IMG/VR virus record: IMGVR_UViG_3300018416_000063
Coordinates: 1-31,691 of that record
DNA: 31,691 nucleotides
Source: a virus
Lineage: Duplodnaviria; Caudoviricetes
Strand: one strand, 5' to 3'
Within the stretch, counting starts at the first letter, position 1. Each line of letters begins with the position of its first letter. Positions 1 to 31,691 of this stretch are shown here, in pieces. Position numbers and translations under genes: made by a program. The notes beneath the pieces were generated by a model. The model worked only from the letters and a program-made list of their open reading frames with translations. It had not been told where the DNA came from and made no database searches.

Positions 1-12
1 ATACTTATGGCC

Positions 13-47
13 AAAATAAAAGGCCTTTGGAAAAAAAGACCTTTTAT
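13..47 (-). terminator. Intrinsic terminator ending the minus-strand structural operon
   Basis: Minus-strand RNA AUAAAAGGUCUUU-UUUUCC-AAAGGCCUUUUAU forms a 13-bp stem. Its one G-U wobble pairs only on the minus strand. The GC core is followed by UUUUAUUUU, about 25 nt after the stop of the 327-aa ORF. Confidence 0.7.
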
Positions 48-71
48 CAAATAGTAAAAATGGAAACTATT

Positions 72-1055
72 TTATAATGCTTCTGAAGTTGTCCAAGCTG
101 GAGTACCCCATGAATTAGAGATATGTGTAGTTGCTGGTGGAACAGCTGAAGCTGATACTGTTAGAGTACCGTCTACTTTATCTAATGATTGTGGGTTTGT
201 GCCTGATAACGGATAAGTTGGGTTACCTGTATCAGCCGCGTCATCTTGGAATGTTACTTTTAATTGTACTTTACCTGAACCGTTGTCTAATGCTTCTACT
301 TTAATGTAGTTAGCAGTGTATGGTGCTGTGTCAGCGTACTGAATAAAGATTTGTTGCAGTGTACCAGTTAATCCGTGATAGTTAATGCTTGAAACTGCTG
401 AACCTGCACCACCTGCTGATCCACCAATTTTAGTTGTACCTGTTAGTGATTCACTGTTAACAGTGTGGCTAGACGAACCTGAAAGTACAACTGTTCCTGA
501 ACGTGTACATAAATCTGTCCATTCAGTGTTTTTATCGTTTGATGTACCACCTGAACGGCTAAATGACAATCTTATTGTGCCACCTGCGTTAAAGAAATAA
601 CGAGCTGTTGCCGCACTTGAAAAATCTAAATCAAGTGTTGTATTAACTGATGTTGTCCAAGTTGCTGTTGATGAACTTGTTGTTGAGATTGCTGTACCAA
701 CTGCGGCACAGTCAAATCTGTTATTATAAACTGTTGATAAGTCTGTTGATACTGTTGCGTATGCTTCAATTGTATCACCAGTTGTTAATGCTGAGTAATC
801 TGTTACTGTAGAACCTTGATGAGCCGCTAGTGTTTCGATTCGACCTAAAAAGTTATTCCACTGTGTTGCTGAAATTGTTGTTCCAGCTGATACTGATGAA
901 ATTGTGCCAGATTGTCCCCAACCTTTGTCGTCTGTACCTGCACCCCATACTGAGTTAACGTTTGCTACTGTATGTGTGCCTGTACCAGCCGCATCACCAG
1001 TGACGAACGTGTTATATTCGTCATCTAAAATTGTATCGCCTGCGGTATATGCCAT
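72..1055 (-). CDS. Virion structural protein (tail/fibre-associated), Ser/Thr/Gly-rich
   Basis: 327-aa ORF with AGGA SD and a MAYxxGDTI N-terminus. Internal G-x-T-I-x-A repeats (GDTILD, GTTISA, GDTIEA). Last gene of the tail module. Confidence 0.7.
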   Translation of the reverse strand: MAYTAGDTILDDEYNTFVTGDAAGTGTHTVANVNSVWGAGTDDKGWGQSGTISSVSAGTTISATQWNNFLGRIETLAAHQGSTVTDYSALTTGDTIEAYATVSTDLSTVYNNRFDCAAVGTAISTTSSSTATWTTSVNTTLDLDFSSAATARYFFNAGGTIRLSFSRSGGTSNDKNTEWTDLCTRSGTVVLSGSSSHTVNSESLTGTTKIGGSAGGAGSAVSSINYHGLTGTLQQIFIQYADTAPYTANYIKVEALDNGSGKVQLKVTFQDDAADTGNPTYPLSGTNPQSLDKVDGTLTVSASAVPPATTHISNSWGTPAWTTSEAL

Positions 1056-1079
1056 TTTTACTATTTCCTATGTTAAAAA

Positions 1080-2432
1080 TTAGTGAACGATTGCTACAAT
1101 CGCTTCAACTGTGCCTTCTTCTTCGCTATATTTAGTTTCTAAAGCACGGCCAATAACGTTAAAGTTATTGACTTCTGTTTTTAGTGCCGCTCTAGCTAAG
1201 CCGTTACCTGCTGAAACTAAACGATCACCTTTGTTTACTGTGCCAATTACTCTAACAGGTACTCTACCTGACATAGCAACTGGTGGGTGTGTAGCATCGC
1301 TACCAGCACCTGCGTTCATTAAGTATGCCGCTCTGGTTGAAATAACACCAAATACTTCATCACTTAATTCACTTGATGCTCTAGTAATTTCCTTAGCACC
1401 ACCTAATTCAACCACTGTTCCTGGCTGATATTCTGCATCTGCTTCAAAACGTTCAGCCAAGTCAGCATATTCTGCTGTAGTAGCAGTTCCGTTAAACTCA
1501 ACGGCATAAATTGTATTGTATTTTAATGAGCTAGTACCCATGTTAATTGTTGCGTTAGCACCTGGGTTAAATGAGCTTGTAGCACCATCAATGTTAATAA
1601 CTGTAGTTTGTGAACCACCGTCGTTAACTGAAAGTTTTAAGTCACCATCTGAAGTTTGGTTAGAAATAGTAACGTCTGAGCCGGATACGCTTACTCTCAT
1701 GTCACTATCTACACCAACTGCAAGACCTGTATCATTTAGCACACCTAGTGTGCCTGATGTTGTGTCATTTCCTGTTGCTGATAAAAAGCCTGTTGAATCA
1801 ACACCGTCTAACAATTCTGCGTTAGCGGCCTTACCATTAAAGATAGCATTTGCAACTGTTGAACTCATGTTCACACCAGGACCAATTGTTGCAAATCCTG
1901 AAATAGCAACTGATGGAGTAAATGTTGCATCTTTAGAAACGATAGTAACAATACTATCTTCTACGAACATCTTAACAACAACGTGATCTGTACCACCTGT
2001 GTCTTCGATTGTGTCAACAATAGCACCTGAAGTACCTGTACCTGCTGTAAATGCTGGACCAACTAAGATCCAACTTGCACCGTCATACACTTTTAGTTGA
2101 CTGTTTGTCGAGTCAAACCATAAGTCACCAGTAACTACTGATGTAGGTGCACTTGTACTTGCTGTTGCTGAACCTAAGTTTTTAAATTGTGAACCGTTGT
2201 AAACTTTTAATAAGCCACCGCTTTTATCAAACCATAGCTGACCTGTTAAAGGTGCTGAAGGTTGAGTAGTATTTGCACCACTCTCCAATAGTTTGATCAT
2301 GTTCTCATTTAAGAACTCACCATAACCAGCATAGTTTTTACCTACAACTGTAAGCGAACTATCTGTGTTAATAGTACCGTCTGCTACTGTAGCAAATATA
2401 GTACCATCTGTTAAATTAATTGTATATGCCAT
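1080..2432 (-). CDS. Tail fibre-like protein with C-terminal intramolecular chaperone/autocleavage (Peptidase_G2-like) domain
   Basis: 450 aa with GGAG SD. Two P-x4-G(Q/D)LWFD-x5-LKVY-x-G repeats. C-terminal YADLAE...GTVV...VFGVIST...PVAMSGRVPVRV-x-G-x-V-x-KGD-x-LVS...VIGRALE. Confidence 0.8.
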   Translation of the reverse strand: MAYTINLTDGTIFATVADGTINTDSSLTVVGKNYAGYGEFLNENMIKLLESGANTTQPSAPLTGQLWFDKSGGLLKVYNGSQFKNLGSATASTSAPTSVVTGDLWFDSTNSQLKVYDGASWILVGPAFTAGTGTSGAIVDTIEDTGGTDHVVVKMFVEDSIVTIVSKDATFTPSVAISGFATIGPGVNMSSTVANAIFNGKAANAELLDGVDSTGFLSATGNDTTSGTLGVLNDTGLAVGVDSDMRVSVSGSDVTISNQTSDGDLKLSVNDGGSQTTVINIDGATSSFNPGANATINMGTSSLKYNTIYAVEFNGTATTAEYADLAERFEADAEYQPGTVVELGGAKEITRASSELSDEVFGVISTRAAYLMNAGAGSDATHPPVAMSGRVPVRVIGTVNKGDRLVSAGNGLARAALKTEVNNFNVIGRALETKYSEEEGTVEAIVAIVH

Positions 2433-2461
2433 CTTTTAATACTCCGTATCCTTTATAGTAT

Positions 2462-2469
2462 TATTTATC
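2462..2469 (-). promoter_or_regulatory. Late promoter motif GATAAATA
   Basis: One mismatch from the T4 late consensus TATAAATA. Intergenic, 29 nt upstream of the 450-aa ORF start. The same 8-mer recurs upstream of three other structural genes. Confidence 0.75.
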
Positions 2470-2492
2470 ACAACCTATTATATTAGCACTTA

Positions 2493-3140
2493 TTAAGTAC
2501 TAGAAAGGTTGGTTAATGTTTGTATTCTCACCGTGTAATCAATTTGAATCTGTCTGTTTAATGATTTTTGTACAGGGTGGAATATCACGTGTGTTACTAA
2601 ATCTAAATCAGTAGCACTACCTTGCCATGATTTTAAACCCAACTCGTCAAATACATACTCTCCATCTAGACTTGTTGAGTTGTCAAATGCTTCTTGTCCT
2701 GCAGGTTCACCGTAGTCCAATAAGCAACTTACTAAAATATCTGTATAGACCTTGCCTGATGTGTGTAACACTGTAAGTTTGTTACGACTTGGATCAGTGT
2801 TTGATGCTGATGTATCATCAACAACTTTTTGATATGTTTCGTTGTATAAGTCAGCATTTTTACCTACGGTATTTGGAGGTAGATATGTAACAACTCCAGT
2901 AGAGTCTACACTTGATCCACCATTACCAAATGACATTTGATAAATGTGACCTATGTTTTTATTAGCCATAGCCTGTGCTAAACTGTTTGAGAAATTCTCA
3001 TAATGAATAGCATTACGCTTGTCTACTAATACTTCTTTAGTGTTAGGATCAAAGATCTTAATATGACCTTCAATTAGTACACCAGAAGTTTCATCAGGTT
3101 TTTTATTTTCCATAGTTTCTTTATCTTGTTTATCGTCCAT
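2493..3140 (-). CDS. Conserved-looking phage structural (baseplate/tail) protein
   Basis: 215-aa ORF between the giant protein and the tail fibre. GHIKIFD...DKRNAIH...FDELGL...THVIFHPVQKS-x-NR-x-IQIDYTVRI resembles tail-collar/baseplate-type proteins. Alternative start at 3113. Confidence 0.7.
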   Translation of the reverse strand: MDDKQDKETMENKKPDETSGVLIEGHIKIFDPNTKEVLVDKRNAIHYENFSNSLAQAMANKNIGHIYQMSFGNGGSSVDSTGVVTYLPPNTVGKNADLYNETYQKVVDDTSASNTDPSRNKLTVLHTSGKVYTDILVSCLLDYGEPAGQEAFDNSTSLDGEYVFDELGLKSWQGSATDLDLVTHVIFHPVQKSLNRQIQIDYTVRIQTLTNLSST

Positions 3141-3144
3141 ACTA

Positions 3145-3152
3145 TATTTATC
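3145..3152 (-). promoter_or_regulatory. Late promoter motif GATAAATA
   Basis: Lies in a 16-nt intergenic gap, 4 nt before the ATG at 3140. Confidence 0.7.
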
Positions 3153-3156
3153 CTAC

Positions 3157-6100
3157 TTAATTCGCCCTTCTTAAGAACTTGGCTGGAACCGTATCTGTCT
3201 GCGTTAACGGTTTACCATCGTTAGCATACAGTGATTGTGTATAACTCCAATCTACATATTCGTTACTTGACATGTTAACAACATCTGAGTTTACAACGTG
3301 TGTAGTAATTGCTGTACCATGTATACCTCTACGTAGATTGCTTACCGTGTTTGTTACTAGATCTCTATTTCTGTAACTAATACGCTCTCCGCCAATCATA
3401 ATAAATCCAAATACACCGTTTTCTAAATCTGGCTCAGGTAATTTACTTGCATCTCTGACATAGATAACGTCATCATCTCTTTCAACTTGTTGCACCAATG
3501 TTGATATTGATTCTTCACCACATCTCCAAATACCTGCTGTGTCATTCATGTCTTTAAAGATCTGAAATGTCATTGCGTTAGGTACAATATTTTCTGTTCT
3601 TAATGTTACTGTTACAATGTCAGTTGCTTGTACATTTACTGAGTAGAACTCAATGTATCTATTATCGCCATCCAACATTTTCCAATCTGTACCATAGAAC
3701 TTACGTTGACCATTTACATGAACAATTAAACGTTCAGGTAATGTAATAGTTCTACCTAAGAAGTAAACTGACTGATCAATAGTAACACCAACTTGTCTAT
3801 CAAAGCCTGCTTCTGTGTCAAAGCCTACTGAGTCAAATGTTGTTCTTGTGGTAAAGCCTGACTGTGTTGGACCTTGATACACTTTGGTCATACCATCTAA
3901 TTCATCAGTAAAGCCAAATGATGTTACAGCAATATGATCACCAACATTTAATGTAAGTCCAGTTGACTTAATGTGAATACATGCGGCCTCTACGTGTATT
4001 GGGTCATGTGTATGTCTATGAATTTTATAGTCTGCACCTGTGTCTACAAATATTTTAACTTTCGATCCATCTGCTGGAGCATTTTGTAGAGTAACTACTC
4101 TGTCGCTTGACCCATCGTATGGTGATAGTATGTAGTCAGCATATAGTTGTAGTTCATACTCATCAACGTAAACAGATAAGTCGTTATCAGCAATTAATCC
4201 TTGACCTAGTGTTGTTTGTAGATCTAAAGTAAAGTCAACAGTTGATCCGTCGCCAGTCCATTCTAAACCTTCGGGTGGTCTTAGTCTTTCTCCATTTAAT
4301 GTTACAATAGCAAACTCAGGATTAATGCCTTGGTCGTGAATATCCTGTGCTATTGGATATACATATTCACTTGCATCTGTTACATACATACTGTCAACTT
4401 TAGGATATGAAACATCACAGTGGACATCTGGATCGTATTCTAGTAATAGTGTACTCACTGTATCTAATCCTGAAAAGCCTAATACTGCTATATGGATGTA
4501 GTCTGTTGACTGTAATGCTCTACTACCCCCAATGACGTCTACCACATATCCTGATTCTCCTGCTAGTGCTGGATTGTCTTGTTCTGGTGTGTTACCATCT
4601 TGGAATATGCTTCTAATTGTTGCGAGTGATGGCTTACTAATTACTGGAGCGATATATGTGTTGTGGAACGCATAACCTAATGGGTTATTTGCTAGAATGC
4701 CTGCTTGGGTACGCATATCGTCTGACCACTCTGGAGCAAGACTTCCACCGTCCCATAATTCTGTGTATTCAAACATACAGAAATTCAACAAGTATAAGTA
4801 TTCTTTTGCGGCTACCTCAAATGCATCTGCATCTGTTTTCCAATCATCTGGATTGTCAAGATAACCCGATGGATCCCACTTGCCGGCATCGTATGCTTCT
4901 TCCATTGCGGCATACAAATCACCTGTCTGCCAGTCAGCGGCTAAGAACTGATATAGTTTTATATCGTCTGCAGGTAACCCGTGCATGTGTAGTGTGTGGA
5001 ATACGTGTTCAATAACTTCTTGTGCGTCTGTATCACCGTCGCCATACCCATCACCAGTTGAGTTCAAATACCAAACCATATCGTTTTGAACGGTATTATC
5101 AAACAAGTCTGTTAAATTCCAACTAGCAACACCTTCGTCAGTTAAGAAGTTTGGAGAGTAATCTGCTCCTGCACCTCTTGCTACTCTTTGTATAGTCGGT
5201 AAGCCTTCGTGATAAGTTCCTGCATCACCACTCAGTGTTTTAATTAAGTTTCTTTGATATTCTTCATTAATGCCTGAGCCATTTGGATCTGTAAATAGTT
5301 CAAACATACGTGCAACTTTTTCTGTAAACGCATCTGGAACTGCTGTTTGTCCGCCCACTGTGCCAGCCGCCATAATTCTTACACCGTTAACAGTAACTTC
5401 ACGTTTGAAGAAGTCACTACCATTACCAGTGACATTACTAATTGCACCGTTGTTGTATTCTGAATCTGCTACGCCTCCGCCAACTGCTGAGCTAACAACC
5501 TGGTCTACATCTGGAGCACCGTCGCCAGTTAAGTCTCTAGTACCGATACCTAGTTTAGTATGATATGTTTCATATGTTTCTAGTGTCCAGTTAGTAATTT
5601 TTTCACCATTGACTAAAACTTCTAAGTTTTTAATTTGCTCATGATCTACTGGTAAAATGATTTCTGCATGTCCGTCTGTTGTTAGGTAGTCGCCTGCTAC
5701 ATAGTCTTCAACTAACAGTTGATTACCGCCACCAACACCGTGTGCTGTTACACCAATGATATCACCTGTTGAGAATCTTCCATCTGTTAGTGTAATTGTT
5801 TTAGCGTTCCAATCGATTGTGTAGTCAACTGTGTCAACTGGTGTATCACCATATTCAAACACTAGTTGTTTACCAGTTGATACTTCGTATGCTAATACAG
5901 CAAACGGTACATCAATTAATCCATCAAAACTGATTGTTCTGTCTGTGCCATTGAATTCAACAAACTTAGTTTGACTCTGTCCTGACCAGCCTTGGTTTGT
6001 GTAGTCCTCACCTGGTCTTGTAGTAACTTGAATATTAAGTGTATCAAATACTGCACCTGGTACTAATTCTTGCGGAGCATGACTATTGTAACTATCAACA

Positions 6101-9100
6101 AAGGCGCCACCAACAACATCAATGTCTGTTGGTCTTGATGTATCATTAGTAATAATCTCGCCTGCTATTTTAAGAGTGTCTTCCATACCATATTGGCTGT
6201 GTTGAATCACAACAGTATCGTGCGGATAGTCTAAAGGCACAGTCCAGGTAACAGTAACTGGTGTTTTATCTTCAACTGTTGCTCTTTTAGCACCGTTGTT
6301 AATAACGCCGTCATCTTCACCTAGCTTGTATAAATCTGTATTGCCTGCTAAAAATTCTTCCTCACTAAGTGCTTGTGTCTTAATGAATAAACTATGACCA
6401 TATGAGAAGTTTCTAAATTTATATGTTGATCCTCGCTGTAGAGTAATGTTAGGGTCTTGTTCAAGTGTTCCGCCTGTTGGTCTATAAAAATCTGAATCCC
6501 ATGACCATAGCCACGGATCATCTTGTTCAAAGTTATCATTCATATGAGCCGCGTCTGGCTGTGAAACTGTTAAATCAAACACTTTAGTTTCAGTTACTAC
6601 ATCATATTGCGTTGTTGCTGATCCTGAGTAATCACCGCCTAGGTATTTGGCATCAAGAATAGTTTCTGAATAACTTGGTTTACCATTTTCGTCAAAGTCA
6701 ATGTTGTCCCACGGATTAGTATCAAAGTTACCTACATCATAGCCTGTGTTAGAACTAAAGTCCGGACCAATCATATTAACACCAGGATACTCAGTACCGT
6801 ACACTAATAATGATAAGTCTAATCCAGGATAGTTAGCGCCTGGCTGGTATAAGCCCATTGTACGATCTACACCTGATAAATCTGTAACATCAACTAATTC
6901 ATAGTCCAATGGATCGAATGTTGCTTTTGTTAGTGTTGACCCATCACCCCAGGTTACCTTATAAACTTTATTATTGAAACGTACTAGTTGATCTTGATCA
7001 TACGCTGTTTCGGCTGTCCAATCAACTACGTTAGTTGAATGTTGATATCGGTCAAACTTGATTGTTGTTTTATAACTTCTTACATCACCAGGCGCGGTAA
7101 CAGCAACTAATTTGGCTCCTTCACCGTTACCACCTTTGAGTGTAATAACTGGGGTTGACGTATATCCTGCACCTGGATAATCAACAACTACAGCAATTAC
7201 TTCACCTGCCGTAGAAACCTTTGCTGTCATTTCAGCAGGTATATCGCACTCACCTGTGATGATTAATTCTGGAGGTTCTGTATAACCACTACCTCCTTCA
7301 ATCACTGTTACACTTTCAATTGATAGTGCAAAGTTTTGTCTCCACATTGAATATTTGCCAGTAGACCAAATTACATTGTCTAGCTGATAAACACCTTCGC
7401 CTGTAATGTCTTCTTGATCTAATACATGTCTTGGAGATATGTACTTGTTTAATGTTGTATTAAATTCAGCAGGTAAATCAAAGTCAGTTGCATCACCTGA
7501 ATACACATCATCGCCTTTATACACTAGATTAAATTCTTTGATCTGTGTTCTATATGGCTTAACTTCTTTAATGTATTGTTGTAGGAAGTCTTGATTATCA
7601 CGTCTTAATATATCAAACTGTTTAAGTTCACGCAGATTATGCTGAACATCAATTAAACTTGTTTTTACTAACCAGTCAGTTGATTTTTGTTCACTTAAAA
7701 CATAGTTAAACATTAATGTAATTAAATCAATTCTATGTTTTGCTAGATCATCAACAAATATTTCTTCATTTAATGATTTAATAATTTGTCTTAATTCAAT
7801 AACTGCTTCTTGGTCAAAGTATTGAGCATCAAACACTTCGTTGTCAAATCCGTTGCGTTCTTGATCGTAATCATACACACTCTTTTTAATCTGTATTGTA
7901 CCTTTTTCTAGACCAACACGCTCCCATCCTGCATTAGTTAATCTGTAAATTTCAAATTTATTCTGTGCGTTTGAACGTACTTTAACAACTGTGCCTAAAA
8001 TTGCATCTGTTAATGTGCCTAAGTCTGCATATTGATTAACTTCTTTACTTGGTTTATCTAAAATGTTATAATCTTCTGCGTACCAATCAACTAAATCCCA
8101 ATAGCGTGTTGTTTTATAATTTTGTACACGTGTTAATAATAATGTTCTATTCGACTGTAATGTATAGATAGTCCAAAGACCACTATTATTCTCGTCTGAT
8201 TTAACAAGATACTTACGTCCAATTGGATCAATATTAATTGTTTGATAGCTCAATTCAGCAATATCATTTAACTCAATATCCCATGCACCTGTTGGCTTAC
8301 CAGGAATCTCTTCTTTGCTTTCAAGTAAAGGATATGATCTAATTTCAGTTACTGGTATTTGTTTAAGTATTCTATTTGTTGCTGTAATATAATTCTCTAA
8401 GGCTTTAAATCTATCAACAAACATTGTTTGTCTTGGACGGAATTCTACACCACGTCTATCTGTTATTGATAGATTAGAGTCAGGAACTTTGTTACCTGCA
8501 GTATCTGTGCCACAGAATGAATCTAGGAACTTACGATATAAACCATCACTTAAGAACTGCGTTGGATCATTATCTCTAATTAATTCAAATTCAATGTGAA
8601 CATTGTTATCTGTTTTAATTTTATCAAATTCAATATGTAATACCGAGTCAGTATCTAATACATAACCTTGGCTATTAAATAATGCAAATGTACCTGTGTC
8701 AACCATTGCTATATAAGGAATCCCACTTGACTTAGGTGTTTCAATATATTGCTGTATTGTTAATGGACTTAGAGTTTTGCCAGAATTTCTATCAACTGAT
8801 GTTAGCCCTTTGACCCAATAATAGTACTTGACTACAACTTCGCCACCTTGTCTGACATCACTAAGTGTCGAGAATGATTCTGTTGAATAAACTGTACCTT
8901 CACCTTCGTACTCGCTTGGCGGTACATCACTTGATATCCATTGATAAATGTCGATACTTGAACCAGGGAATAAGTTACCTATACGTTTAGCACGATAGTC
9001 TGCTGTTGATTGATTGTAGTTAATAAACTTAGCAGTAGAAACGTCCCACCATACTGTGCCTAAGTGTTCGTTACCCCAGGCCATGCCAAAGTTATTTTCA

Positions 9101-12100
9101 GTACCATTGTTATAGTTTGCTGGATCATTTGGTATAGTTAGGTCAATGTTTTGTTGGGCCGCACCTAATATTTTTCCTTGTAGAGGATCAATATAATCTA
9201 AGTAAGTTAAGACTTTTTCAGTTGTTTTATTGTATATAAATGCTGAGTTGATTAATTCAGTGTTAACTACATCAGTTTCTTTTTCAACTTCTTGCCATAC
9301 TGGTGTAAATGTTTCGTTATTAAATCTAACAATTCTGCCGTTAACATTATCGTTAGTTAGGTGTTTAGGTGAACCAATTAGTAGTTTAGCATTACAGTAA
9401 TCAACACTGGTACCAAATTCACTAAGTGGATGTACTAAACTGTCTGTAATCTGTTGCCCAAATACAAACTTACCTGGATTAGAATAAGTGTCTACATCAC
9501 TTTCCAAATAGTCGTATGTATAAACAGCACCACTTTGTGTTTGTATATCTTTAATTTTAGTAGCACCTGCATCAATTAATGTTGTACTTGCATCTAGTGT
9601 GACTTCTAAATTGGTAGCACCATTAGGTGACCCAATGATAATACTTAACGCATCACTCGAAATATCTAAACTATGTCCAAATCTTGCATTAACAATTGGA
9701 TATGGATTATGAATTGTTTGCATTCTTGGGAATATATCTATACCAAGATCTTCATGTATTACTCCAGTGCCTGGATAGATAAACAATTTGTTAGCCGCAG
9801 GTGCCGCGTTTACATTGATCAACTCAATTTTAATTTTGCCATCAACAACACTTGCTTTAACGTTTGGAAGGCCAGCATTATTAATATCATCTACATAACT
9901 TTCTACTGTTGTACCTGTTGCTCTAACATAATAGTTGTTAATTCTTAGTGCATCACCTACTGTAATAGTTGGGTTTGCTGTTGAACCCATTGTTGATCCA
10001 TATAATCTTGATCTGTTAACAAAGCGTGTTACTGATCCTGCTGAGTCAGCAGTTTTGCTATCTTGCGGAGCACCTACATACATTGAACAGTTAGTTGGAC
10101 ATACTCTTACTGCATAACCAAACTGTGAGTTTTCCATAGCTTCTTCTTGATGTAACTCACCTGCTAATACAAAGTTGTTAGTTTCAACTTCAACAATGTC
10201 ACCTAGATCAACTGAGGCATCATCTATTGTTACTGTATTACCTGCAACCGTATATGTTCCTGCATACAAGTAATCGTCATCATTGACTTGTACTTGATCA
10301 TTAATTAATACTGTTGGTTGACCTTGTATGTCTTTTGTAGTTGTGAATGCTAGTGTTGTATTATCTTTAACTTGGAAACGCTCTGTGTCTCTGTCGTACA
10401 CAAACACTCTGCCTACGTTGTCACTTGAGTCAATTCCTTCGCCCTTAGGAGCACCAATGATTAGTTGTCTGCCATCTCTTGTTGTGGCTAAACTTGATCC
10501 AAATCCATTCCCTAACACACCAGGATTACTAATAGAGTTAACATATTCATAATATGACTCTGCAAATACCTGTATTAATAAATTAGCTGGAGGCGCAATA
10601 CTTGCACCGGATTTGTTTGTTAGTGTAAATGTAATTTCTTGTGTTAACTCGTTGAATGTATAATCATAGTTAGGTCTTAATAATTCTTCATCAATCAATA
10701 CTCTAAATTTGTCAATTGATGTAGCATGATAAATTGAGCTAATATCATATGTTGTAGTTACACCATCACCTTCTTCTTGCCAGGTATACTTGCGTACCAT
10801 TTCAACTCTGGCTCCATCCTTAGGTGCTTCTGTAAATGTAATCTGGCTACCAGACACTGTAAAGTCAGTTACTGGTACTTGAATAATATTATCGATGTTA
10901 ACAGCAACCTGTGTTTCGTCGTCTACAGTAATGTATTCATCAATATTAAATACTATCGTTGACCCGTCTCCTAAGAATTCATATTCTTGCTGTTCATAAT
11001 CTCTACGTTGATATGTGTAGACTTTTTCGTTACCTGGTGCACCTACATAAATCCATTTTGAATTAGGACTAATTGCAACTGCTTGACTAAATCGGCTAGT
11101 TGTTGAATCACCGGATTCGTTACCTGGTACTGTTAAAAATTGTGATTCACGAATAACGCCACTAGTTGTTTGGTCAATGACTACTGCGAGTCCTTCGTCA
11201 TCTTTAGATCCTGGTGCACCTACAATGCTCCAGCCGCCATCAGCTGAATCAATTGCACTACCGTATTCTAAAATTTCTTTTTCAATTACACTAGAAGTTT
11301 TGCCTAGATGTAATTGTGTGCCTTCCTGAATATCTCCAGTACCAATTTGACCAAATACATAAACACTACCTCTACCACTTTCCCAACCTGGTGCACCAAT
11401 TAAACTTGTTAGCCCATCTGGTGTTTGTGATACAACTTGACCAAAGTTTGAATCTGCTTGAGGTGCTTTAAGTGTTTTACTCCAGGTATTGTTTCTATCG
11501 TTAAACGGATTAAATTTCTCTAGCACTTTCCAGCGTGTGCCGTCTACCCAGATCTTTTCACCTGTGTCAACTGAATGAATGTATGATAAGTCTGCAATAT
11601 CGCTACCTTGTGTAACTTTGCTCGACTGTAATACAAACGCTACGCCAAGATCGTCAAGTGCTGTTATTTCATCAGGCAATGATAAGTCAATTACAATTTT
11701 ATTTAACTGTGGTGTCGACTTAACTCTAAATGCGCCTGTTAATCTATCAAAGAATCTAAACACAACAATATCATCTTTTACTAATGTATGATGACCGTTA
11801 AATGTTACTGTTGATGTTTCGTCTAGGTTATCAACTATTCTAATAGGTTCATTACGTAGCAGTGTTGATCTATAAACATTCCAAGAGTAGTTGTTATCTT
11901 TTGCTACCCAAATCTTAGTGCCTTCAGTAATTTTGTTAATATTTTCTTCAATTGCTGTTAGATCTGCTAGTTCATAAACTTTGATATCAACATCTTCAAC
12001 ATTTACAAATCCTGCTGATGGTAGTGAGTTTTCAACATTCTGATAGTCAACAGTTGGTAATATATTACCATTGTTTACTTTATAGCTTGACTTATAAATG

Positions 12101-18009: not shown

Positions 18010-18017
18010 TCTTTATC

Positions 18018-21428: not shown

Positions 21429-21448
21429 ACTTTAATTAAGTGGGTATA

Positions 21449-21823: not shown

Positions 21824-21830
21824 AGTGTAT

Positions 21831-24077: not shown

Positions 24078-24083
24078 ACTTTA

Positions 24084-27014
24084 TTAATTACCTTGTGTTT
24101 CACCCCTGACTGGTAAAAAGTTAGGTGCTGTTTGGTTATTTGATACTGCTCGTTGGCCTGGTACTGAGTTACCATTGTCATTTACTTGTCCCAGGTTAGG
24201 TCCTATAGGTCCTGCTGTGTCATATTGACCTTGTCCGTTTTGTGCTGTGCTAATTGGTGTGAAGTTAGGTGCTATGTCCGAGTCAGACGTTATTGCCGCA
24301 TCACCCGGAACTTTATTTCCTTTAACACTTACCGGAGTAAAGTCTGGAGCATAATTGTTAGCACCATAGGTAACTGCTTTGTATCCAGGCATGTTCATAC
24401 CGCCTCTAGTAGGTCCTACAAATGGTTGTTCTTCTTGTTCTCTCTGAACAGGTTCTTGAGTTGCTGTTTCAGGAAATTCTCTTAGTATTCCTCGTAGACT
24501 CTGTGTCATTACACCTTTTTTAAAATTACTAGTAACATGTGTAAGTTTGTAAATTAATCCTTTGGCTGTTTTAGTACCGTCAGTGAATAGTGGATCTTTG
24601 AGATCAGCACTGCCATCTTCTTTATAATCTTCCATGGTTCTAAATTTAACTTCGACTAAAACTTCTTGGCTGTCATAATTAATTGAGCCATCTGGCATAA
24701 ACGGTTCAAATGTATCACCACTGGTGTATAGTACATCATTCTGTTGAACATAGTCTGGATCACCAATGATATCCATATTAAACGTAGCAAAGTCTACAGT
24801 TGAATAAATCACATCAGCGGCCTGTTCTGCAGGACTAGCAGTGTCTCCTGGTTGTCCTAGTCCACTGGCTCCAGACTTATTAACGTATGCTTTAGATGTA
24901 ATACGTTGACTGTCTTCTGTTGATTCTTGATCTTCTTGTGGTATTCTACCATCCATAGCAACAAAAAATGTTGTATTTAGATCTTGTTCGTAGTTAAGTA
25001 CTTCTGTGTTTTCTCCAGTAAACCAATAGCTATAACTTTTGTGTACTCCTCTAAATGGGGCTTTAGGAAAAAATGGAGAGTAAGTATCTGCTATCTGTTT
25101 AGGTGATATAATATATTCTATTTCGTAGGCATAGTCACCACGCTTGTCGTCCCAGGCAATAGGAAGAACTCTAACACCAATGTGATACCATTGTAAGAAC
25201 TTATTCTGTGACGGATTAGGTTTTACTTTTTTTGTTTTTGGATCAATGATATGTGTTTGCTGTTTTGAAATATATTCGCTAGACCTAATCATGATGTCAA
25301 GAAACTGATGTATCTGTTGACCTGCTGGCACAGCATAAATCTGTCTTGACTTATCATAACTTGTACTATTTAAAATACTATTGGCCGCGGCCTGTGCCGA
25401 CGCAGACATAGGTTTAGATTTTTTAACTGTTAACAGTGCTTCACTGGAAATAATTTTTTGTTTTCCTATGTCACCTTTAAATGTAACTTTATATTTGTCA
25501 GCATATTTGTAGCCTTGTTCTCTAGCCAACTTTTTCTGCTGTTCATTTAGCTCTTCTACAATACCTTTGTTTTGCTGAGTTGTACCAGCTTGGCTTTTAA
25601 GTATACCAGGAGTAACTGTTGTTTCAGTTGTACCCCATGGTGATGTTGCTGTAGTTTGACTAGTAGACGTTGCTGGCAGTTGTTCAACATTACTAGTAGC
25701 ATTAAATAGATCACCTAGAGTTTGTCCTAGTAGCTCAACATTAAAAGGAATAGTAGCACGTTTTGAACTCAGTGCTACTTCGTGATTAATTGCCACAGCT
25801 TGGCATTCATAAGTGATAGCACCTGTAGCAACTCTTGTTCTAATATTTGAAAACACAAATGGAATAAATTTACTTAATCTATCATCATCTGCTTCGCTCA
25901 ATTGTTTACCGTTTTCATCAAACCCTTTATATCTAATGACCAAGAGATAATGTTGTTTTGAAAACTCTTTCATTCCTGCTGACGCACATAGTTCTTTTAG
26001 TTTTTTAAAAAACGTGTAGCCCATTGGCTCGATGATGTTAAAGTTCATTCTTGTAACATTATGTGGACTAGAATTTGCTTCAGCAAATAGTCCTTGTACT
26101 TCTAGATCATCTATATACAGGTCCGGAAATATAACATCTTCATTAGCAGAATTACCACCACTCTGTAATATCTTTTTGAGACCTTGTGTTGTTTTATTTT
26201 GTGTGACTAATAATTGTTTATACTGTTCTGGTGTCTGTAGATATAATTCAATATTATAAGTTAACTGTGCGTACTTGTTTGTTGGATTTTCTGAAGCATT
26301 AAAATTCTCGTAGAATGCTGATGCTGTTTTTATTCCACCGTTAGCTGATGTTATAAAAGTGTTATCTTGTATATCTTGTGCGTCATCTGCAGATACAGGT
26401 TGGCCAATTAATATGTCCGGAGTTACAGGCGCATCAGCAAATGTTCCGTATGGTGATGTTGGAATACGATCTGCGTTTGACTGAACAACAGGCTCTCCTG
26501 CTGAGTTTGTTAAATGACTTGGATAAGGTGTTTGTGTTCCTGCCCCATCAGCACGTGCCTGTGCATCATTGTCTACTATTGCACCCGATGATGTGGCGCC
26601 TTGTGTTTCGCCTCTAACAGGTGTAAAGTCAGGTGCTGTGTTTTCATCTGTTCCTGTAACAGCAGTGGTTCCACCTACTCCGTCTTGTTCAACTACTGGA
26701 GTAAAGTCTGGACCTATCTGTTGATTAATCTGATTAACTGTTTGAAAACTTTGTTGTCGTCTTTGTTGTATTAATTCGTTATTAGTTGTTATTTGCCCGT
26801 CATATTCGCTAGGGTTTTGGCTTTTGTAAACAGTGGCTTCGTATCTAGCATTGGCACCTTCTTGACTAGCAATACGCACATCATTTTTTGCATCATATAA
26901 TTGTTGCTTACTTGAATTTGAATTACTTAAACGAGTCTGTGCATCAGCATTGGCACGATCCATGCCCTGTATTGCTCCTGACTGCCTCTGTAATACTTCA
27001 GTTATTGTAGGCAT
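24084..27014 (-). CDS. Baseplate hub protein (gp27/GPD-like) with low-complexity N- and C-terminal arms
   Basis: 976 aa. N-x-x-NKYAQLTYNIELY, YIDDL, FNIIEPMG-x-TF, YSYWFTG-x-NTEVL, MDIIGDP-x-Y and GLIYK..V-x-S-x-F-x-x-G-x-x-TQ-x-L. Lies between gp53-like and gp5-like genes. Confidence 0.7.
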   Translation of the reverse strand: MPTITEVLQRQSGAIQGMDRANADAQTRLSNSNSSKQQLYDAKNDVRIASQEGANARYEATVYKSQNPSEYDGQITTNNELIQQRRQQSFQTVNQINQQIGPDFTPVVEQDGVGGTTAVTGTDENTAPDFTPVRGETQGATSSGAIVDNDAQARADGAGTQTPYPSHLTNSAGEPVVQSNADRIPTSPYGTFADAPVTPDILIGQPVSADDAQDIQDNTFITSANGGIKTASAFYENFNASENPTNKYAQLTYNIELYLQTPEQYKQLLVTQNKTTQGLKKILQSGGNSANEDVIFPDLYIDDLEVQGLFAEANSSPHNVTRMNFNIIEPMGYTFFKKLKELCASAGMKEFSKQHYLLVIRYKGFDENGKQLSEADDDRLSKFIPFVFSNIRTRVATGAITYECQAVAINHEVALSSKRATIPFNVELLGQTLGDLFNATSNVEQLPATSTSQTTATSPWGTTETTVTPGILKSQAGTTQQNKGIVEELNEQQKKLAREQGYKYADKYKVTFKGDIGKQKIISSEALLTVKKSKPMSASAQAAANSILNSTSYDKSRQIYAVPAGQQIHQFLDIMIRSSEYISKQQTHIIDPKTKKVKPNPSQNKFLQWYHIGVRVLPIAWDDKRGDYAYEIEYIISPKQIADTYSPFFPKAPFRGVHKSYSYWFTGENTEVLNYEQDLNTTFFVAMDGRIPQEDQESTEDSQRITSKAYVNKSGASGLGQPGDTASPAEQAADVIYSTVDFATFNMDIIGDPDYVQQNDVLYTSGDTFEPFMPDGSINYDSQEVLVEVKFRTMEDYKEDGSADLKDPLFTDGTKTAKGLIYKLTHVTSNFKKGVMTQSLRGILREFPETATQEPVQREQEEQPFVGPTRGGMNMPGYKAVTYGANNYAPDFTPVSVKGNKVPGDAAITSDSDIAPNFTPISTAQNGQGQYDTAGPIGPNLGQVNDNGNSVPGQRAVSNNQTAPNFLPVRGETQGN

Positions 27015-27015
27015 A

Positions 27016-27318
27016 CTAGATTCCTAGTGCTTGTTTAAGTGTTGATTGTTTAGGTAAGTAAATTTTTAATCCGACTTTAAAATCCCAGATTGGATCTTTA
27101 ATTGAGTTTGGATTACGCTGTGCAAATACCCACCATAGACCAGGATCACCATACAAGTCATTGGCTAATAAATCTGGTCGATGTTGATATGTTTGATTAA
27201 TTTCAATAACCTGATCATCTACCTGTTTAGGTATAGGTCTATCTTTCATTATATCTAGATAGCCTGCAGTTTTTGCTGTTTCAAAATAAGGTGATGTCTG
27301 TGTGTATTTTGTAGCCAT
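27016..27318 (-). CDS. gp53: Baseplate wedge protein, gp53/LysM-like
   Basis: YQHRPDLLANDLYGDPGLWWVFAQRN..DP-x-x-DF-x-x-G-x-x-IYLP. Start is more likely the ATG at 27318, overlapping the upstream stop (TAATG coupling), giving 100 aa. Confidence 0.85.
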   Translation of the reverse strand: MATKYTQTSPYFETAKTAGYLDIMKDRPIPKQVDDQVIEINQTYQHRPDLLANDLYGDPGLWWVFAQRNPNSIKDPIWDFKVGLKIYLPKQSTLKQALGI

Positions 27319-28661
27319 TACCATTGTCCTCTTGTTGATAGTCCAGCACCGTCGGCATAATTTTTAAGACTAAACTGTTTACTTTGTTCTGCTCTTGTTA
27401 CTACTGGTAATAGAATTAAACTAACTTCAATTTTAGTTGGAACGTATGTTGATCCTGCTCTAGCCAAATTAGTTCCTTCGTTGGCCGCTTGAAATTGCTG
27501 TTCAGCACCAACGTCAGCACCAATGCCAAATAATCTACCAATACGACTAGCAATACCAAATATACCAAAGTTACCCGATCCACCACTTAAATTTGCTCTA
27601 GTTGACTGAGCTTTGATACTTCCTACTCCGCCTTCTGATGTTCTAATGTAGTCAACATTATCTGGTAAAGAATAGTTAAATTGGCTTACTACCGCTTTGT
27701 GAAAGTTAAACTGATTAGGCCCAAGACCTGTTACACTGACTAATGGTGGCGGCGTTCCTTTGTTAGCATCTTGTCCGTAAAACATTTTAGTTGCTGAACG
27801 GAAGAAGTGTATCATAGCCATCATATAGTCTGCTTCGTCTGTTGATTGTGCTGTAAATGTAGCATTAATCTGTACATCACTTACTTCTGAACTTTGATAG
27901 AAGTATGTTGGATAGTTTGAATGTGTTGGTGATATTTTGTCATAGTTAGCACGATAGTTAACCATTACGTTTGGTGTATATGGAAATACAACACCATCTG
28001 TTTTTAATAATGGCGATAATATACTGTAAGCATTTCCGTCTCTGTATAATACATCACTGCCTGGCATAAGACCAATTCTTAAACGCCAATCTTCTGTTCC
28101 AGCCTTGGCTGATACTGTAACTGGACCAGTTTCAATTTTTTGTACATCTTGAGGAACATATCCACCACCGCCAGGTGTTTCTGGGCCTGTGCCTGTTGGG
28201 TTACTAAAATTTGGTCCAATTTGATCGCCTTCTGTGATAGCGGCATCACCACCAATTGTTCCTGTGCCTCTGGTTTCGCCTGATCCAAATTGAGGACCTA
28301 TCTGTTCTCCAGGACCAGTAATGGCACGTTCACCTGGTACTTGACTGCCTGTACCAACACCTGTAAAATCTGGTTGAGGAGTAGCACCGGTATAGGTAAT
28401 AGCCGAATCGTTAGTTTCGATAGGAGCAAAGTTAGGTGCGTTCTGAGGGGCAGGACTATTATAATTTACATTATTACTGCCCTGTCCTAGACCTCTGTCT
28501 ACCTGAAAGTTAGGTGCTAGTTGTGACTCATTACGCAACATTGAGTATTCTTCAGCAGTAAAACTTGTACCCGCAGGTTGGTTAGTAGGTAAGTCTTGTT
28601 CTACACCTACTTGTATTGCTGGAGTAACTAACTTTCTATTATTAATTGGATCTTGTGCCAT
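27318..28661 (-). CDS. Baseplate tail-tube initiator/cap (gp48/gp54-like) with ~190-aa low-complexity N-terminal arm
   Basis: 447 aa with GAGG SD. Core GVVFPYTP..Y-x-ANY..THSNY..YQSS..I-x-A-x-FTAQ..EA..HFFRS-x-TKMFYG..GTPPP, then VPTKIEVSL. First gene of the baseplate operon. Confidence 0.7.
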   Translation of the reverse strand: MAQDPINNRKLVTPAIQVGVEQDLPTNQPAGTSFTAEEYSMLRNESQLAPNFQVDRGLGQGSNNVNYNSPAPQNAPNFAPIETNDSAITYTGATPQPDFTGVGTGSQVPGERAITGPGEQIGPQFGSGETRGTGTIGGDAAITEGDQIGPNFSNPTGTGPETPGGGGYVPQDVQKIETGPVTVSAKAGTEDWRLRIGLMPGSDVLYRDGNAYSILSPLLKTDGVVFPYTPNVMVNYRANYDKISPTHSNYPTYFYQSSEVSDVQINATFTAQSTDEADYMMAMIHFFRSATKMFYGQDANKGTPPPLVSVTGLGPNQFNFHKAVVSQFNYSLPDNVDYIRTSEGGVGSIKAQSTRANLSGGSGNFGIFGIASRIGRLFGIGADVGAEQQFQAANEGTNLARAGSTYVPTKIEVSLILLPVVTRAEQSKQFSLKNYADGAGLSTRGQW

Positions 28662-28683
28662 TCTTATTCCTCTTTATACATAC

Positions 28684-28691
28684 TATTTATT
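28684..28691 (-). promoter_or_regulatory. Late promoter motif AATAAATA heading the baseplate operon
   Basis: ATAAATA core 22 nt upstream of the 447-aa ORF start. Confidence 0.65.
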
Positions 28692-28732
28692 TAAATAATA
28701 ATAACCCAATATAATAGCTAAACCAAAAAAGG

Positions 28733-28760
28733 TTGACAGGGGTTGTTTTACATGTATAAT
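28733..28760 (+). promoter_or_regulatory. Sigma70-type early/middle promoter for the late sigma gene
   Basis: Perfect TTGACA (28733-28738), 16-nt spacer, perfect TATAAT (28755-28760), with an upstream A-tract. Confidence 0.85.
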
Positions 28761-28789
28761 TAATAGTAACTTATATGGAGATAGCAACT

Positions 28790-29689
28790 GTGGCAGAACA
28801 AAAAATTATGAGAGGTGGACGTAGAGTCAACTATCTTAACAACAGAGACATTCTCGCAGAAATACACAAAAGTAAAAAAACATACTGCAAATATCTAAAC
28901 AAAGAAACAGATTCAGATTTTGATATTATTGTAGATAGTGTTAGTAAGATTAATAAAACACGCATTAAAGAAGCTCGTGCTAATAAAATTGCTCGTGCTA
29001 AAAAGATTGACGGTGTTATTCTAGAACCTAAAGACGTAGCAGATACTGAATTAGTATTCCGTGTTATGACTTGGGATCATATCCCAATGGTGGATAAAAA
29101 GCCTACTAAAGCACAGTTAAAGAAACGTGCTAAGATTGAAGAAATGTTTGACGACATTGACGAAGCAAGAGATCAAGAGGACTATGGTATTGACGATCAA
29201 GTACATGCCAAAGTTAACTTTCCGCCATTTCAACACTACAAAGTTGACGAAGAGGGTAATCCATACTTAGTTGGTAAAAGTCATTGGAAAGGTGATTTGG
29301 AAACAGGTAAGTTTTCAAAAGACCACGGTGAAATGACTATGAAGTTAGCCAACATGTTTATTAAACTATGTGAGCGTTATGCTACACGTAGTAACTGGCG
29401 TGGTTATACCTACAACGAAGAAATGCGTGGACAGGCGCTACTTCAACTATCACAAATTGGTCTACAGTTTGATGAGTCAAAATCAGACAATCCATTTGCT
29501 TATTACACTGCGGCCATTACCAATTCATTTACTCGTGTGCTTAACATTGAAAAGAAAAATCAAAGCATTAGAGATGATATCTTAGAAATGAATGGACTTA
29601 ATCCAAGTTGGACAAGACAGAACGAAGGTGTTACTGACTCAGATCCACAAGGTCCAGGCAAAGTAACAACTATCAAGCCAAAAAAGTAG
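28790..29689 (+). CDS. gp55: Late-transcription RNA polymerase sigma factor, gp55-like
   Basis: NYLNNRDIL and NWRGYTY-x-EEM..A..FDESKSDNPFAYYT..NSF-x-R-x-L-x-x-EKK match T4 gp55 conserved blocks. Adjacent to gp47/gp46 as in T4-like phages. GTG start at 28790 preferred (GGAG 9 nt upstream); the track start is 28775. Confidence 0.88.
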   Translation: MAEQKIMRGGRRVNYLNNRDILAEIHKSKKTYCKYLNKETDSDFDIIVDSVSKINKTRIKEARANKIARAKKIDGVILEPKDVADTELVFRVMTWDHIPMVDKKPTKAQLKKRAKIEEMFDDIDEARDQEDYGIDDQVHAKVNFPPFQHYKVDEEGNPYLVGKSHWKGDLETGKFSKDHGEMTMKLANMFIKLCERYATRSNWRGYTYNEEMRGQALLQLSQIGLQFDESKSDNPFAYYTAAITNSFTRVLNIEKKNQSIRDDILEMNGLNPSWTRQNEGVTDSDPQGPGKVTTIKPKK

Positions 29690-29715
29690 ACAACAGCAGA
29701 CTAGTCCTGTAAACT
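29687..29715 (+). promoter_or_regulatory. Putative sigma70-type promoter for gp47-gp46
   Basis: TAGACA (29687-29692), 17-nt spacer, TAAACT (29710-29715). Confidence 0.5.
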
Positions 29716-29721
29716 AGTCTG
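29697..29721. repeat. Perfect 9-bp inverted repeat (hairpin or operator)
   Basis: CAGACTAGT-cctgtaa-ACTAGTCTG between gp55 and gp47. Confidence 0.8.
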
Positions 29722-29748
29722 TATTAGTTTTATTCATTCAAGGAAGGT

Positions 29749-30765
29749 ATGAGTAATTTATTTAAAAAGGCGGCTGTCCTTACAGATATACATTTTGGAT
29801 TAAAATCCAATTCAACTACACACAACGAAGACTGTTTAAATTTTGTAAAATGGTTTATTGAAAAAGCCAAGGCAGAAGGTTGCGAAACCTGTATCATGAT
29901 GGGTGATTGGCACAACAACCGTGCGGCAATCAACATTGTTACATTAAACTATAGTCTTACAGCATTAGAATTATTAGGCGATGCTTTTGATCGTGTGTTC
30001 TTCATTCCAGGTAATCACGACTTATACTACAGAGACAAACGCGACATACAGTCAGCGTCATGGGCTAAACATATCAAAAACGTACACATTATGAATGACT
30101 TTTATTCTGAAGGTGATGTACAGTTTATACCTTGGCTAGTAGGTGACGAAGCAAAGAAAGTTAAAAAGATGGAAGGACGTTATGCGTTTGGACATCTAGA
30201 GTTACCTCACTTCTTTATGAATGCTATGGTGCAGATGCCTGACACAGGCGAGATACAGCGTGAAGACTTTCGTGGCTTAGAACAGGTTTATACAGGACAC
30301 TTCCATAAACGTCAAAGCCATAACAACATTATCTATACTGGTAATTGCTTTCCTCACAACTATGCTGACGCAGGTGATGATGACAGAGGTATGACCATTA
30401 TTGAATGGGGTAAAGATCCTGTGTATCATTCTTGGCCTCAACAGCCTAGATATCGTGTTTACAACTTAGATGAAATGTTAAACAATCCTGATGAATTATT
30501 AAAAGAAAAAATGCACATTCGTGTAAACTTGAATATTGATATATCATATGAAGAAGCAAGTTTTATTCGTGAAACATTTGTAGGCAAGTATAATCTTAGA
30601 GAACTTACACTGATACCAGTTAAAAAAGATATTATGGAATCGGTGGCAGAACCTGGGGAGTTGAAGTTCGAATCAGTTGACACAATAGTGACAAATCAGT
30701 TAACATCAATAGAAAGTGATCATTACGATCCTAAACTATTACTAGAAATTTACAGAGATTTATAA
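29749..30765 (+). CDS. gp47: Recombination endonuclease subunit, gp47 (Mre11/SbcD-like metallophosphoesterase)
   Basis: 338 aa with motifs DIHFG, GDWH, GNHD, FGH and GHFH. AGGA SD. Confidence 0.93.
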   Translation: MSNLFKKAAVLTDIHFGLKSNSTTHNEDCLNFVKWFIEKAKAEGCETCIMMGDWHNNRAAINIVTLNYSLTALELLGDAFDRVFFIPGNHDLYYRDKRDIQSASWAKHIKNVHIMNDFYSEGDVQFIPWLVGDEAKKVKKMEGRYAFGHLELPHFFMNAMVQMPDTGEIQREDFRGLEQVYTGHFHKRQSHNNIIYTGNCFPHNYADAGDDDRGMTIIEWGKDPVYHSWPQQPRYRVYNLDEMLNNPDELLKEKMHIRVNLNIDISYEEASFIRETFVGKYNLRELTLIPVKKDIMESVAEPGELKFESVDTIVTNQLTSIESDHYDPKLLLEIYRDL

Positions 30766-31691
30766 TTGTTCAAACTAAAAACACTAACAGTTAAAAACTT
30801 TATGAGTGTGGGTAATGCCACACAAGCAGTTAACTTTGACCGCAGAGACTTAACACTGGTATTGGGTGTTAATATTGATCTCGGAGGCGATGATAGTGGC
30901 GCTAGGAACGGTACTGGTAAGACCACTATCATCAATGCCCTTTCATACGCATTGTTTGGTCAAGCACTGACTAATATTAAACGTGATAACTTGATCAATA
31001 AAACTAACTCAAAAGGCATGTTGGTTAGTTTAGACTTTGAACATGAAGGACAAACATATAAAATAGAACGTGGACGTAAGAAAAATGTCATGCGTTTTTT
31101 TGTAGGTGACGACGAGCAAGAAATCACAGACATGGCACAGGGCGATAGTCGAGAAACACAAAAGGCTATTGAACACATGCTAGGCATGAGTCATGAAATG
31201 TTCAAACACTTAGTAGCGTTAAACACTTATACAGAACCATTCCTTAACTTAAGAGCAAACGATCAAAAGGATATCATTGAGCAGTTACTTGGTATTACCA
31301 TGCTTTCAGAAAAGGCAACTAATCTTAAAGAACGCTTAAAAGAAACTAAGGATAAAATCAAAGAAGAAGAAATAAGAATTGATGCTCAAAAGGACGCTAA
31401 CGAACAAATGAAAGCACAGGTTGAGTCTATGAAGCGTAGACAAACTATGTGGGCTAACAAAAAACAAGAAGACATAGATAGTTTAACCAGTGCTATTGAA
31501 AACTTAGAAAAGATTGATATTGATTTAGAACTTGCTAGTCATAAAGAGTTGGCTAAGTTTAATCAAAGTAAAAAAGATCATGATGACATTACAGATGCTA
31601 TTGCAAGAACAGAACGTGATCTTAAACGTGAACAAGGTAATGTAGTTAAACTAGAACAAGACATACAATTATTAAAAGAACACAAGTGTCA
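30766..31691 (+). CDS. gp46: Recombination ATPase subunit, gp46 (Rad50/SbcC-like), 3'-truncated by window end
   Basis: Not in the ORF track. A TTG start gives MFKLKTLTVKNFMSVGN...LTLVLG...RNGTGKTTIINALSYALFG...LINK...YKIERG...IIEQLLGI, followed by coiled-coil-like sequence, open to the window edge. Confidence 0.92.
   Translation, partial: MFKLKTLTVKNFMSVGNATQAVNFDRRDLTLVLGVNIDLGGDDSGARNGTGKTTIINALSYALFGQALTNIKRDNLINKTNSKGMLVSLDFEHEGQTYKIERGRKKNVMRFFVGDDEQEITDMAQGDSRETQKAIEHMLGMSHEMFKHLVALNTYTEPFLNLRANDQKDIIEQLLGITMLSEKATNLKERLKETKDKIKEEEIRIDAQKDANEQMKAQVESMKRRQTMWANKKQEDIDSLTSAIENLEKIDIDLELASHKELAKFNQSKKDHDDITDAIARTERDLKREQGNVVKLEQDIQLLKEHKC

Follow-up and report, generated by a model that had tools for sequence, protein, structure and literature searches.

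Total loss of GCWGC in a clade of uncultured T4-like jumbo myoviruses and its probable origin in host restriction

Restriction-site avoidance is a known phenomenon in phages. Site elimination was described as typical of non-temperate double-stranded DNA phages and of orthodox Type II sites, being found in 7.5% of cases, and GCWGC was below expectation in 66.3% of the genomes of that study (Rusinov et al. 2018, PMC6286503). Here, a 31,691-base stretch of an uncultured virus was analysed (IMG/VR record IMGVR_UViG_3300018416_000063, 1..31691; hereafter the window), which contains no GCWGC, i.e., neither GCAGC nor GCTGC. The window carries a tail/baseplate module together with gp55, gp47, and gp46 of a T4-like jumbo myovirus. 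As in the cases of Rusinov et al., the clade of the window has lost a short restriction-type site completely, presumably by substitution. Unlike in those cases, a base modification is predicted alongside the purge, which is total for GCWGC and GTAC but conditional for GCGC and CGCG.

ApeKI and BbvI have GCWGC-type recognition, and Bsp6I recognizes GCNGC. Other restriction-modification (R-M) systems of these specificities are TseI and BceSIV for GCWGC (10.1101/380360, PMC4267653), and Fnu4HI for GCNGC (PMC8936443). Their sites match the missing word, but only one such system, of the Bsp6I family, was found among candidate hosts (genome G183). Of modified phage genomes, the known DpdA motifs are GA/GGC in CAjan and GA in iggy (PMC10484667); KVP40.0122 is named DpdA2 (PMC8056088), and a gene set of the FolE/QueD/QueE/DpdL type points to 7-deazaguanine (dDG) (PMC10516641). 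Like phiST (DpdA3/DpdL), the family of the window has a predicted transglycosylase of the tRNA-guanine transglycosylase (TGT) fold with FolE, QueD, and QueE. Its DpdL homologue and the failure to find QueC are phiST-like (PMC10516641, PMC8056088), and its suggested GA/GG motif is close to that of CAjan. However, the family enzyme is only remotely similar to DpdA2 and DpdA3, and the base, level, and motif were deduced here from missing words. Phages Melnitz, MEP401, and MEP402 (PMC9004378, PMC10580990) belong to the same probable host group. Their lack of CGCG matches the loss of bare CGCG in the clade, but they keep GCWGC and purge GATC, unlike the clade. In literature searching, no paper was found that deals with this clade or with avoidance that depends on context in a genome with a DpdA mark, and supplement tables of PMC6286503 and PMC10516641 may list relatives. 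In PMC11094077, GCWGC occurs only inside a primer.

The best explanation is that a restriction endonuclease of the host, which the predicted 7-deazaguanine mark does not block, has long selected against GCWGC and so caused the purge. A rough probability of 0.65 is given to it because the depletion is graded in the family, arose at least twice, stands among lineage-specific purges of other palindromes, and relaxes together with that of GCGC in two loci of the clade.

GCWGC and Ala-Ala codons in the window and its relatives

GCAGC and GCTGC were both counted zero times on both strands of the window. The expected number of GCWGC was 28.9 (sd 5.4) from 100 dinucleotide shuffles, 33.1 by maximal-order Markov model, and 31.7 from 1000 synonymous-codon shuffles, which never gave fewer than 23. 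Among 5-mers, GCWGC ranked first in depletion whichever null was used. An earlier sequence-only reading of the window had reported this absence from a manual scan, and the exact count (0 vs 29-33 expected under three nulls) bears it out. The same reading had put GCCGC/GCGGC at roughly 35 copies; these words are indeed common, but the exact count was 39, vs 19 expected. It had also named GATC and GGCC as not visibly depleted, which holds for GATC (0.98 of expectation), whereas GGCC was mildly low (0.65 by Markov). AGCT was at 0.4 of expectation.

The missing sites are mirrored in alanine codons. All 34 Ala-Ala pairs in 13 long open reading frames (ORFs) start with GCG (23) or GCC (11), as had been noticed in a smaller sample, whereas Ala codons before another residue were GCA/GCT in 539 of 617 cases and GCG/GCC in 78, in line with the stated preference. 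The swap at Ala-Ala is GCA to GCG and GCT to GCC. The individual cases read by eye were exact, i.e., the 327-aa gene (72..1055, minus strand) with five pairs at 992, 827, 707, 614, and 239, all GCG/GCC-first; Ala-Ala-Ala written GCC-GCG-GCC at 25383..25391 (minus); the late sigma factor gp55 (28775..29689, plus) with GCG-GCC at 29510; and the SbcD-like gp47 (29749..30765, plus) with GCG-GCT at 29770 and GCG-GCA at 29923. The 4950-aa virion structural protein (3157..18009, minus) contains 13 pairs, each GCS-first, and the baseplate wedge subunit (18018..21392, minus) contains two, GCG-first.

Of the 31.7 expected sites, no more than 3.5 fall outside the Ala-Ala frame, so the window alone is unable to exclude a codon-pair effect, and the relatives settle the matter. 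A translational bias in Ala-Ala codon pairs, instead of selection on DNA, would suit the 28 expected sites that sit in that frame. However, in five clade contigs, i.e., the window, G001, G002, G015, and G017, the remaining two frames showed 0 GCWGC vs about 84 expected, and sister lineages, whose codon usage is the same, make free use of GCA/GCT in Ala-Ala (123 of 223 pairs in G010). The sequence-only reading had named such a bias as a finding that could overturn it; the off-frame count refutes the bias, which is very improbable as the cause. Ala-Ala dipeptides themselves were reduced in the five contigs, 366 vs 507 expected (a loss of about 28%), compared with 1150 vs 1091 expected in G004, G005, and G010, which argues that selection acted up to the protein level. 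Long-term selection against GCWGC on DNA, as first proposed, is thus upheld in every reading frame and over the whole clade.

Miscalling of modified GCAGC/GCTGC in nanopore sequencing was considered as a technical cause. Nanopore errors at modified GCAGC were published for Listeria (PMC10687267), and the 23:11 split between GCG and GCC matches plain A>G and T>C changes. However, contigs from four other public runs, whose records give no library type, were letter-identical at 13 of 18 GCSGC sites of 1-12000, and 26 of the 28 closest relatives, which were separately assembled, also had zero sites. The Ala-Ala letters of 72..1055 were the same in zero-difference contig pieces from independent runs. 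Ala-Ala dipeptides are also reduced in number. The identical letters and the zero counts of the relatives refute this artefact, which is hardly credible.

With gp47 as the marker for loci and tree, the 80 best among 598 loci in IMG/VR were taken as relatives. In the 28 closest loci, which have 79-100% gp47 identity and many of which are near-identical, 4 GCWGC were seen vs 334 expected, and 26 of 28 had none. Loci L049-L051 showed 0 vs 16 expected, a group of 11 loci showed 24 vs 208, and the remaining 38 loci showed 978 vs 1255. In a quick gp47 tree of 52 rows, after identical proteins were collapsed, the 28-locus group (support 100) and the 11-locus group (support 100) were apart, with non-avoiders between them. 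This topology suggests that the purge arose at least twice in the family.

Longer contigs gave the same picture. GCWGC seen/expected was 0/33 in the window, 0/151 in G001 (132 kb), 0/97 in G002 (74 kb), 0/61 in G015 (66 kb), 0/53 in G017 (50 kb), and 1/77 in 60 kb of G321. Then came 61/321 in G003, 488/768 in G317, 424/723 in G318, 368/525 in G005, 230/361 in G004, 171/249 in G010, and 1252/1244 in G319. G015 and G017 are without gp47 and were placed in the clade by carbamoyltransferase identity to G002 (71% and 86%) and by the motif signature. Across the wider family the depletion is therefore graded from none to total, which fits intermittent selection by hosts and not a self-encoded nuclease.

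Other palindromes were lost by single lineages. GTAC was 0 vs 216 expected in G002 and 0 in G017, and its total absence was confined to one sub-lineage (G002, G017, L007-L009, and L011). CATG was near 0 in L065, and ACGT was purged in L078 and G319. In L025 and L026, which lie inside the clade, GCWGC and GCGC outside the sequence context described below were both back. This joint return fits a change of host better than the loss of one phage gene, and a recent host shift is possible for these two loci.

Context-dependent sites and a candidate DpdA

The 13 GCGC sites of the window (6104..30902) each have a 5' G or a 3' C. None of them is bare, i.e., without G then A/G in or just before the site, whereas about 10 bare sites were expected. 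The nine CGCG sites (237..30043) are each followed by A/G on at least one strand, and none is bare vs about 4 expected. In the family, bare CGCG was found 0-2 times in each of 12 contigs, whereas CGCG before A/G persists; bare GCGC was 0 across the clade. The simplest rule is that G carries a mark when A or G follows, and that this mark likely shields CGCG and GCGC. A cutter of CGCG appears to be near-universal for the 12 jumbo-family contigs and for Melnitz, MEP401, and MEP402.

Of the 61 GCWGC in G003, 57 are flanked by a 5' G or a 3' C. Bare GCWGC numbered 715 in G319, 172 in G005, 115 in G010, 86 in G004, 50 in G317, 42 in G318, 4 in G003, and 0 in the clade. Inside the clade the context does not spare the site. 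Flanked copies were counted 0 times in the five contigs, vs about 96 with one flank and 9 with two expected, and the sole surviving GCWGC in the 60 kb of G321 is flanked on both sides. GTAC in G002 and G017 was purged outright like GCWGC, and GAGCT was spared in both. Because GATC, GANTC, CCWGG, and GGCC contain G+A/G steps, the mark would explain the small depletion of these sites.

Two other shields were discarded. Methylation of RGCY (PMC8919816) was rejected on the survival of both GGCAGC and GGCTGC in G003, and a shield of GG/CC only on the survival of CGCG before A as well as G and on the spared GAGCT of G002 and G017.

A candidate for the marking enzyme is encoded in the family, outside the window. 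The DpdA candidate is a protein of 512-518 aa with a DSGGFQ motif, adjoins DNA polymerase B, and was found in all 8 contigs, among the 12 of the family, that cover the region. The region, with a DpdL homologue and a glycosyltransferase-like neighbour, lies at L396:16619-19507 in G015 and at L114:7135-13016 in G005. In the model of the G005 protein (pLDDT 78.8), the top 50 PDB matches were all tRNA-guanine transglycosylases. The G015 copy is 67% identical to it and retains DSGGFQ, MILD, VLQG, HFLGT, and SFDCA. Sequence comparison gave remote matches; hhalign returned E 2.5e-4 and 43% probability to KVP40.0122 and 14% probability to phiST CGPG_00065, and in the Atlas neighbour cluster 22% of members carried Pfam TGT. 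Neither phmmer nor tblastn with KVP40.0122 matched the family DpdA, and a PDB sequence search with the DpdA profile had no match. PF01702 and PF00145 were each found in 0 of 5 contigs (G001-G005), so that this DpdA lies beyond the reach of the Pfam TGT model, and no phage C5 methyltransferase was seen in these five. From its structural model, the protein is predicted to be a TGT-fold DNA transglycosylase. Another locus, L115:11736-12656, was considered as DpdA and dropped.

Genes of the precursor pathway were also seen. G015 carries FolE, QueD, and QueE, and its DpdL homologue beside DpdA matched phiST CGPG_00067 with E 1.4e-10. KVP40 queries for QueC and QueF matched nothing in the 12 contigs, and because QueC was not found the base is likely dDG or a derivative. 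The DpdA neighbour of 355-362 aa is conserved, and its relative in phage Phosso is annotated as glycosyltransferase; this protein could add bulk to the mark. A large family of aquatic jumbo phages thus shares an uncharacterised DpdA of the TGT fold, together with DpdL, and its predicted target, read from the sites that survive, is G followed by A or G.

Probable host and source of the selection

The host is likely an OM43-like member of Methylophilaceae, where OM43-like is the label used here for the matched Methylophilaceae genomes. Clade contigs carry host-like genes, i.e., fused SoxYZ, a FabF-like ketoacyl synthase, RNA polymerase omega, DksA/TraR, IscS, and IscU (L396:1155-1886, L398:373-2345, and L087:8469-10078), and the assignment is drawn from IscS, IscU, and SoxYZ. 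IscS of G001, which is also carried by a 293-kb contig, was 86-88% identical to proteins of Methylophilaceae genomes of 1.2-1.4 Mb, whereas none of the other taxa compared exceeded 77.6%. The top matches of G001 IscU were from Methylophilaceae at 84-86% (4 of 64 database parts scanned). The fused SoxYZ of G015 was 56-62% identical in 5 of 5 Methylophilaceae genomes, and phage soxYZ is known to include a Methylophilales-like clade (PMC8190135). The FabF comparison gave no host clue.

In the explanation by host restriction, an orthodox Type II enzyme of the host would cut GCAGC/GCTGC, and DpdA would mark the first G of GA/GG steps. The mark would spare GATC, GANTC, CCWGG, and GGCC from selection, and sites beyond its cover would be removed by point substitution. 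The T4-like jumbo gene set may point to a non-temperate lifestyle of the clade. The candidate host genus does carry Type II systems, although sporadically. C5 methyltransferases were found in 8 of 42 genomes of the genus and the N4/N6 type passed the cut-off in 4 of 42, none of them lineage-wide. Among 17 proteins scanned, the neighbouring nucleases were of the NgoPII (2), Bsp6I, BpuJI, MutH-like, SinI, NgoBV, and His-Me finger families. In Melnitz, MEP401, and MEP402, CGCG is wholly absent and GATC is purged, as is GGCC or GGWCC. Some of these are sites of those nuclease families, so sparse systems do shape phage genomes.

Several points weigh against host restriction. No GCWGC system was recognized in the 42 candidate genomes, which are incomplete and for which Pfam does not give specificity, and the Bsp6I family was found in 1 of 251 Methylophilaceae genomes; the search for cognate methyltransferases in hosts, advised by the sequence-only reading, thus returned this one system. 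In 400 kb of three candidate host genomes, GCWGC was 507 vs 503 expected. It is also kept by Melnitz (112/113 in 100 kb), MEP401 (95/82), and MEP402 (94/81), and in four contigs of Melnitz-like phages that share 77-83% SoxYZ identity with the clade (42 vs 47 expected), whereas three SoxYZ loci of clade-like contigs had 0 vs 44. G001 and G015, and not the window, supplied the clues to the host, and the clade placement of G015 and G017 is partly circular, because the motif signature itself was used. As for the shield, DpdA2 inserts its base in less than 0.1% of G (PMC10516641), too little for protection, and a small dDG base one position outside the site is no obvious block.

Because the OM43 phages keep GCWGC, phages of that group other than the clade do not seem to be under this selection. 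Either the clade has, or once had, hosts different from those strains, or the phage itself encodes the cutter; the comparison holds only if OM43 is the host. The idea that the missing word is a usable host fingerprint is not supported by these counts, as the three host genomes are not depleted and 3 of 3 cultured OM43 phages keep the site. Given this mismatch, GCWGC is unsuitable alone for host prediction.

A GCWGC endonuclease encoded by the clade itself would degrade host DNA and rival phages, its own genome having been cleared of the site. Such an enzyme would be a weapon against the host chromosome, which has about one site per 800 bases, and against co-infecting Melnitz-like phages, and the clade would be immune to it since every copy is recoded. 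The absolute purge accords with this, as even the singly and doubly flanked sites are gone from the five contigs and G321 retains a single doubly flanked site over 60 kb. Also, GCWGC is abundant in the genome of the probable host and is kept by the phages that share this host. However, Pfam searching of 115 ORFs of G001 and 73 of G015 found no restriction-endonuclease family, and PHROGs on 73 selected ORFs found no restriction-type nuclease; the only nucleases seen were a gp4-like TnsA nuclease and an SNase. The nuclease search covered about 190 of about 350 kb, the genome size implied by CheckV figures for relatives. Hence the phage-borne nuclease or methyltransferase for which the earlier reading had advised a search was not found, in that portion for the nuclease and in G001-G005 for the C5 methyltransferase. 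A comparison of G317 and G318, which are strongly but incompletely purged, with one non-purged genome, G319, revealed no gene whose presence consistently followed the purge. The graded depletion and the relaxed sites of L025 and L026 fit poorly, and GTAC shows that a total purge can arise in a single sub-lineage. A nuclease of the clade's own is therefore unlikely, as is the fuller picture in which that weapon is combined with a new DpdA subfamily that, with DpdL, marks GA/GG against host enzymes.

Within host restriction, the specificity of the enzyme may be read in two ways. An enzyme specific to GCWGC or GCAGC, of the TseI/ApeKI, BceSIV, or BbvI type, is plausible at somewhat less than even odds. 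An enzyme of the Fnu4HI/Bsp6I type, cutting GCNGC, is the more doubtful reading and is held tentatively; GCGGC and GCCGC would survive through their marked GG step. Since GCSGC always contains GG, the excess of GCSGC is no proof that the enzyme ignores it, and since a GCNGC cutter leaves the same trace, the target need not be GCWGC. Every GCSGC has G then G on one strand by construction, so the unshielded class is empty. A C5 methyltransferase lies beside the Bsp6I-family nuclease in G183. Contexts in which both strands would be marked were in excess in the clade, where GCG-GCC made up 52 of 202 vs 19 of 126 after GCC (p 0.027), and G stood before GCC-GC in 30 of 131 vs 29 of 197 (p 0.078). 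However, the GCG-GCC excess was also seen in the weakly purged G004 and G005, the genomes are related, and the Bsp6I family is as rare as stated above. The OM43 phages, which keep GCWGC, also had no DpdA/Que matches (100 of 141.5 kb of Melnitz, the whole of MEP401 and MEP402). A missing word in a modified genome thus does not name the enzyme, as GCWGC and GCNGC are indistinguishable.

A sequence-specific defence other than R-M, e.g., a DNA-modifying toxin or a nicking system aimed at GCAGC, would account for the failure to find an R-M system and for the undepleted host genome. None was seen and none was searched for. All further words found to be purged are restriction palindromes of the classical kind, and phages of the same host should then avoid GCWGC too, so this is improbable. 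With host restriction as the preferred cause, the clade exemplifies clearly a strategy against restriction that is already known.

Other genes of the window and of related genomes

In PHROGs, the named genes of the window were baseplate wedge and hub, virion structural proteins, gp55, gp47, and gp46. The wedge subunit was 32-34% identical to proteins of jumbo phages Atu_ph07, SCTP-2, and GAP32. The gp46 gene continues past the window end; its called start is TTG at 30766, right after the gp47 stop, and this TTG is probably the true start. Twenty public runs, all labelled salt marsh metagenome, contain 79-96% of the words of 18001-27900, and three runs with word shares of 0.00-0.03 were left out of this set. 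TAAATA was depleted in the coding sequence of the window (12 vs 38-48 expected). This word resembles the T4 late promoter core, and its depletion is likely avoidance of stray gp55 promoters.

In G001, about eight radical SAM/SPASM-like genes and a carbamoyltransferase (L081:3118-12141) lie just beyond the tail genes and are conserved family-wide. G003, of the second avoider clade, encodes a module of curli-type CsgF/CsgG, FecR, and adenylate cyclase (L088:15337-19600 and L089:147-1712), like that of Melnitz and HTVC008M. It also encodes a Tad3-like Thoeris inhibitor at L090:9528-10031.

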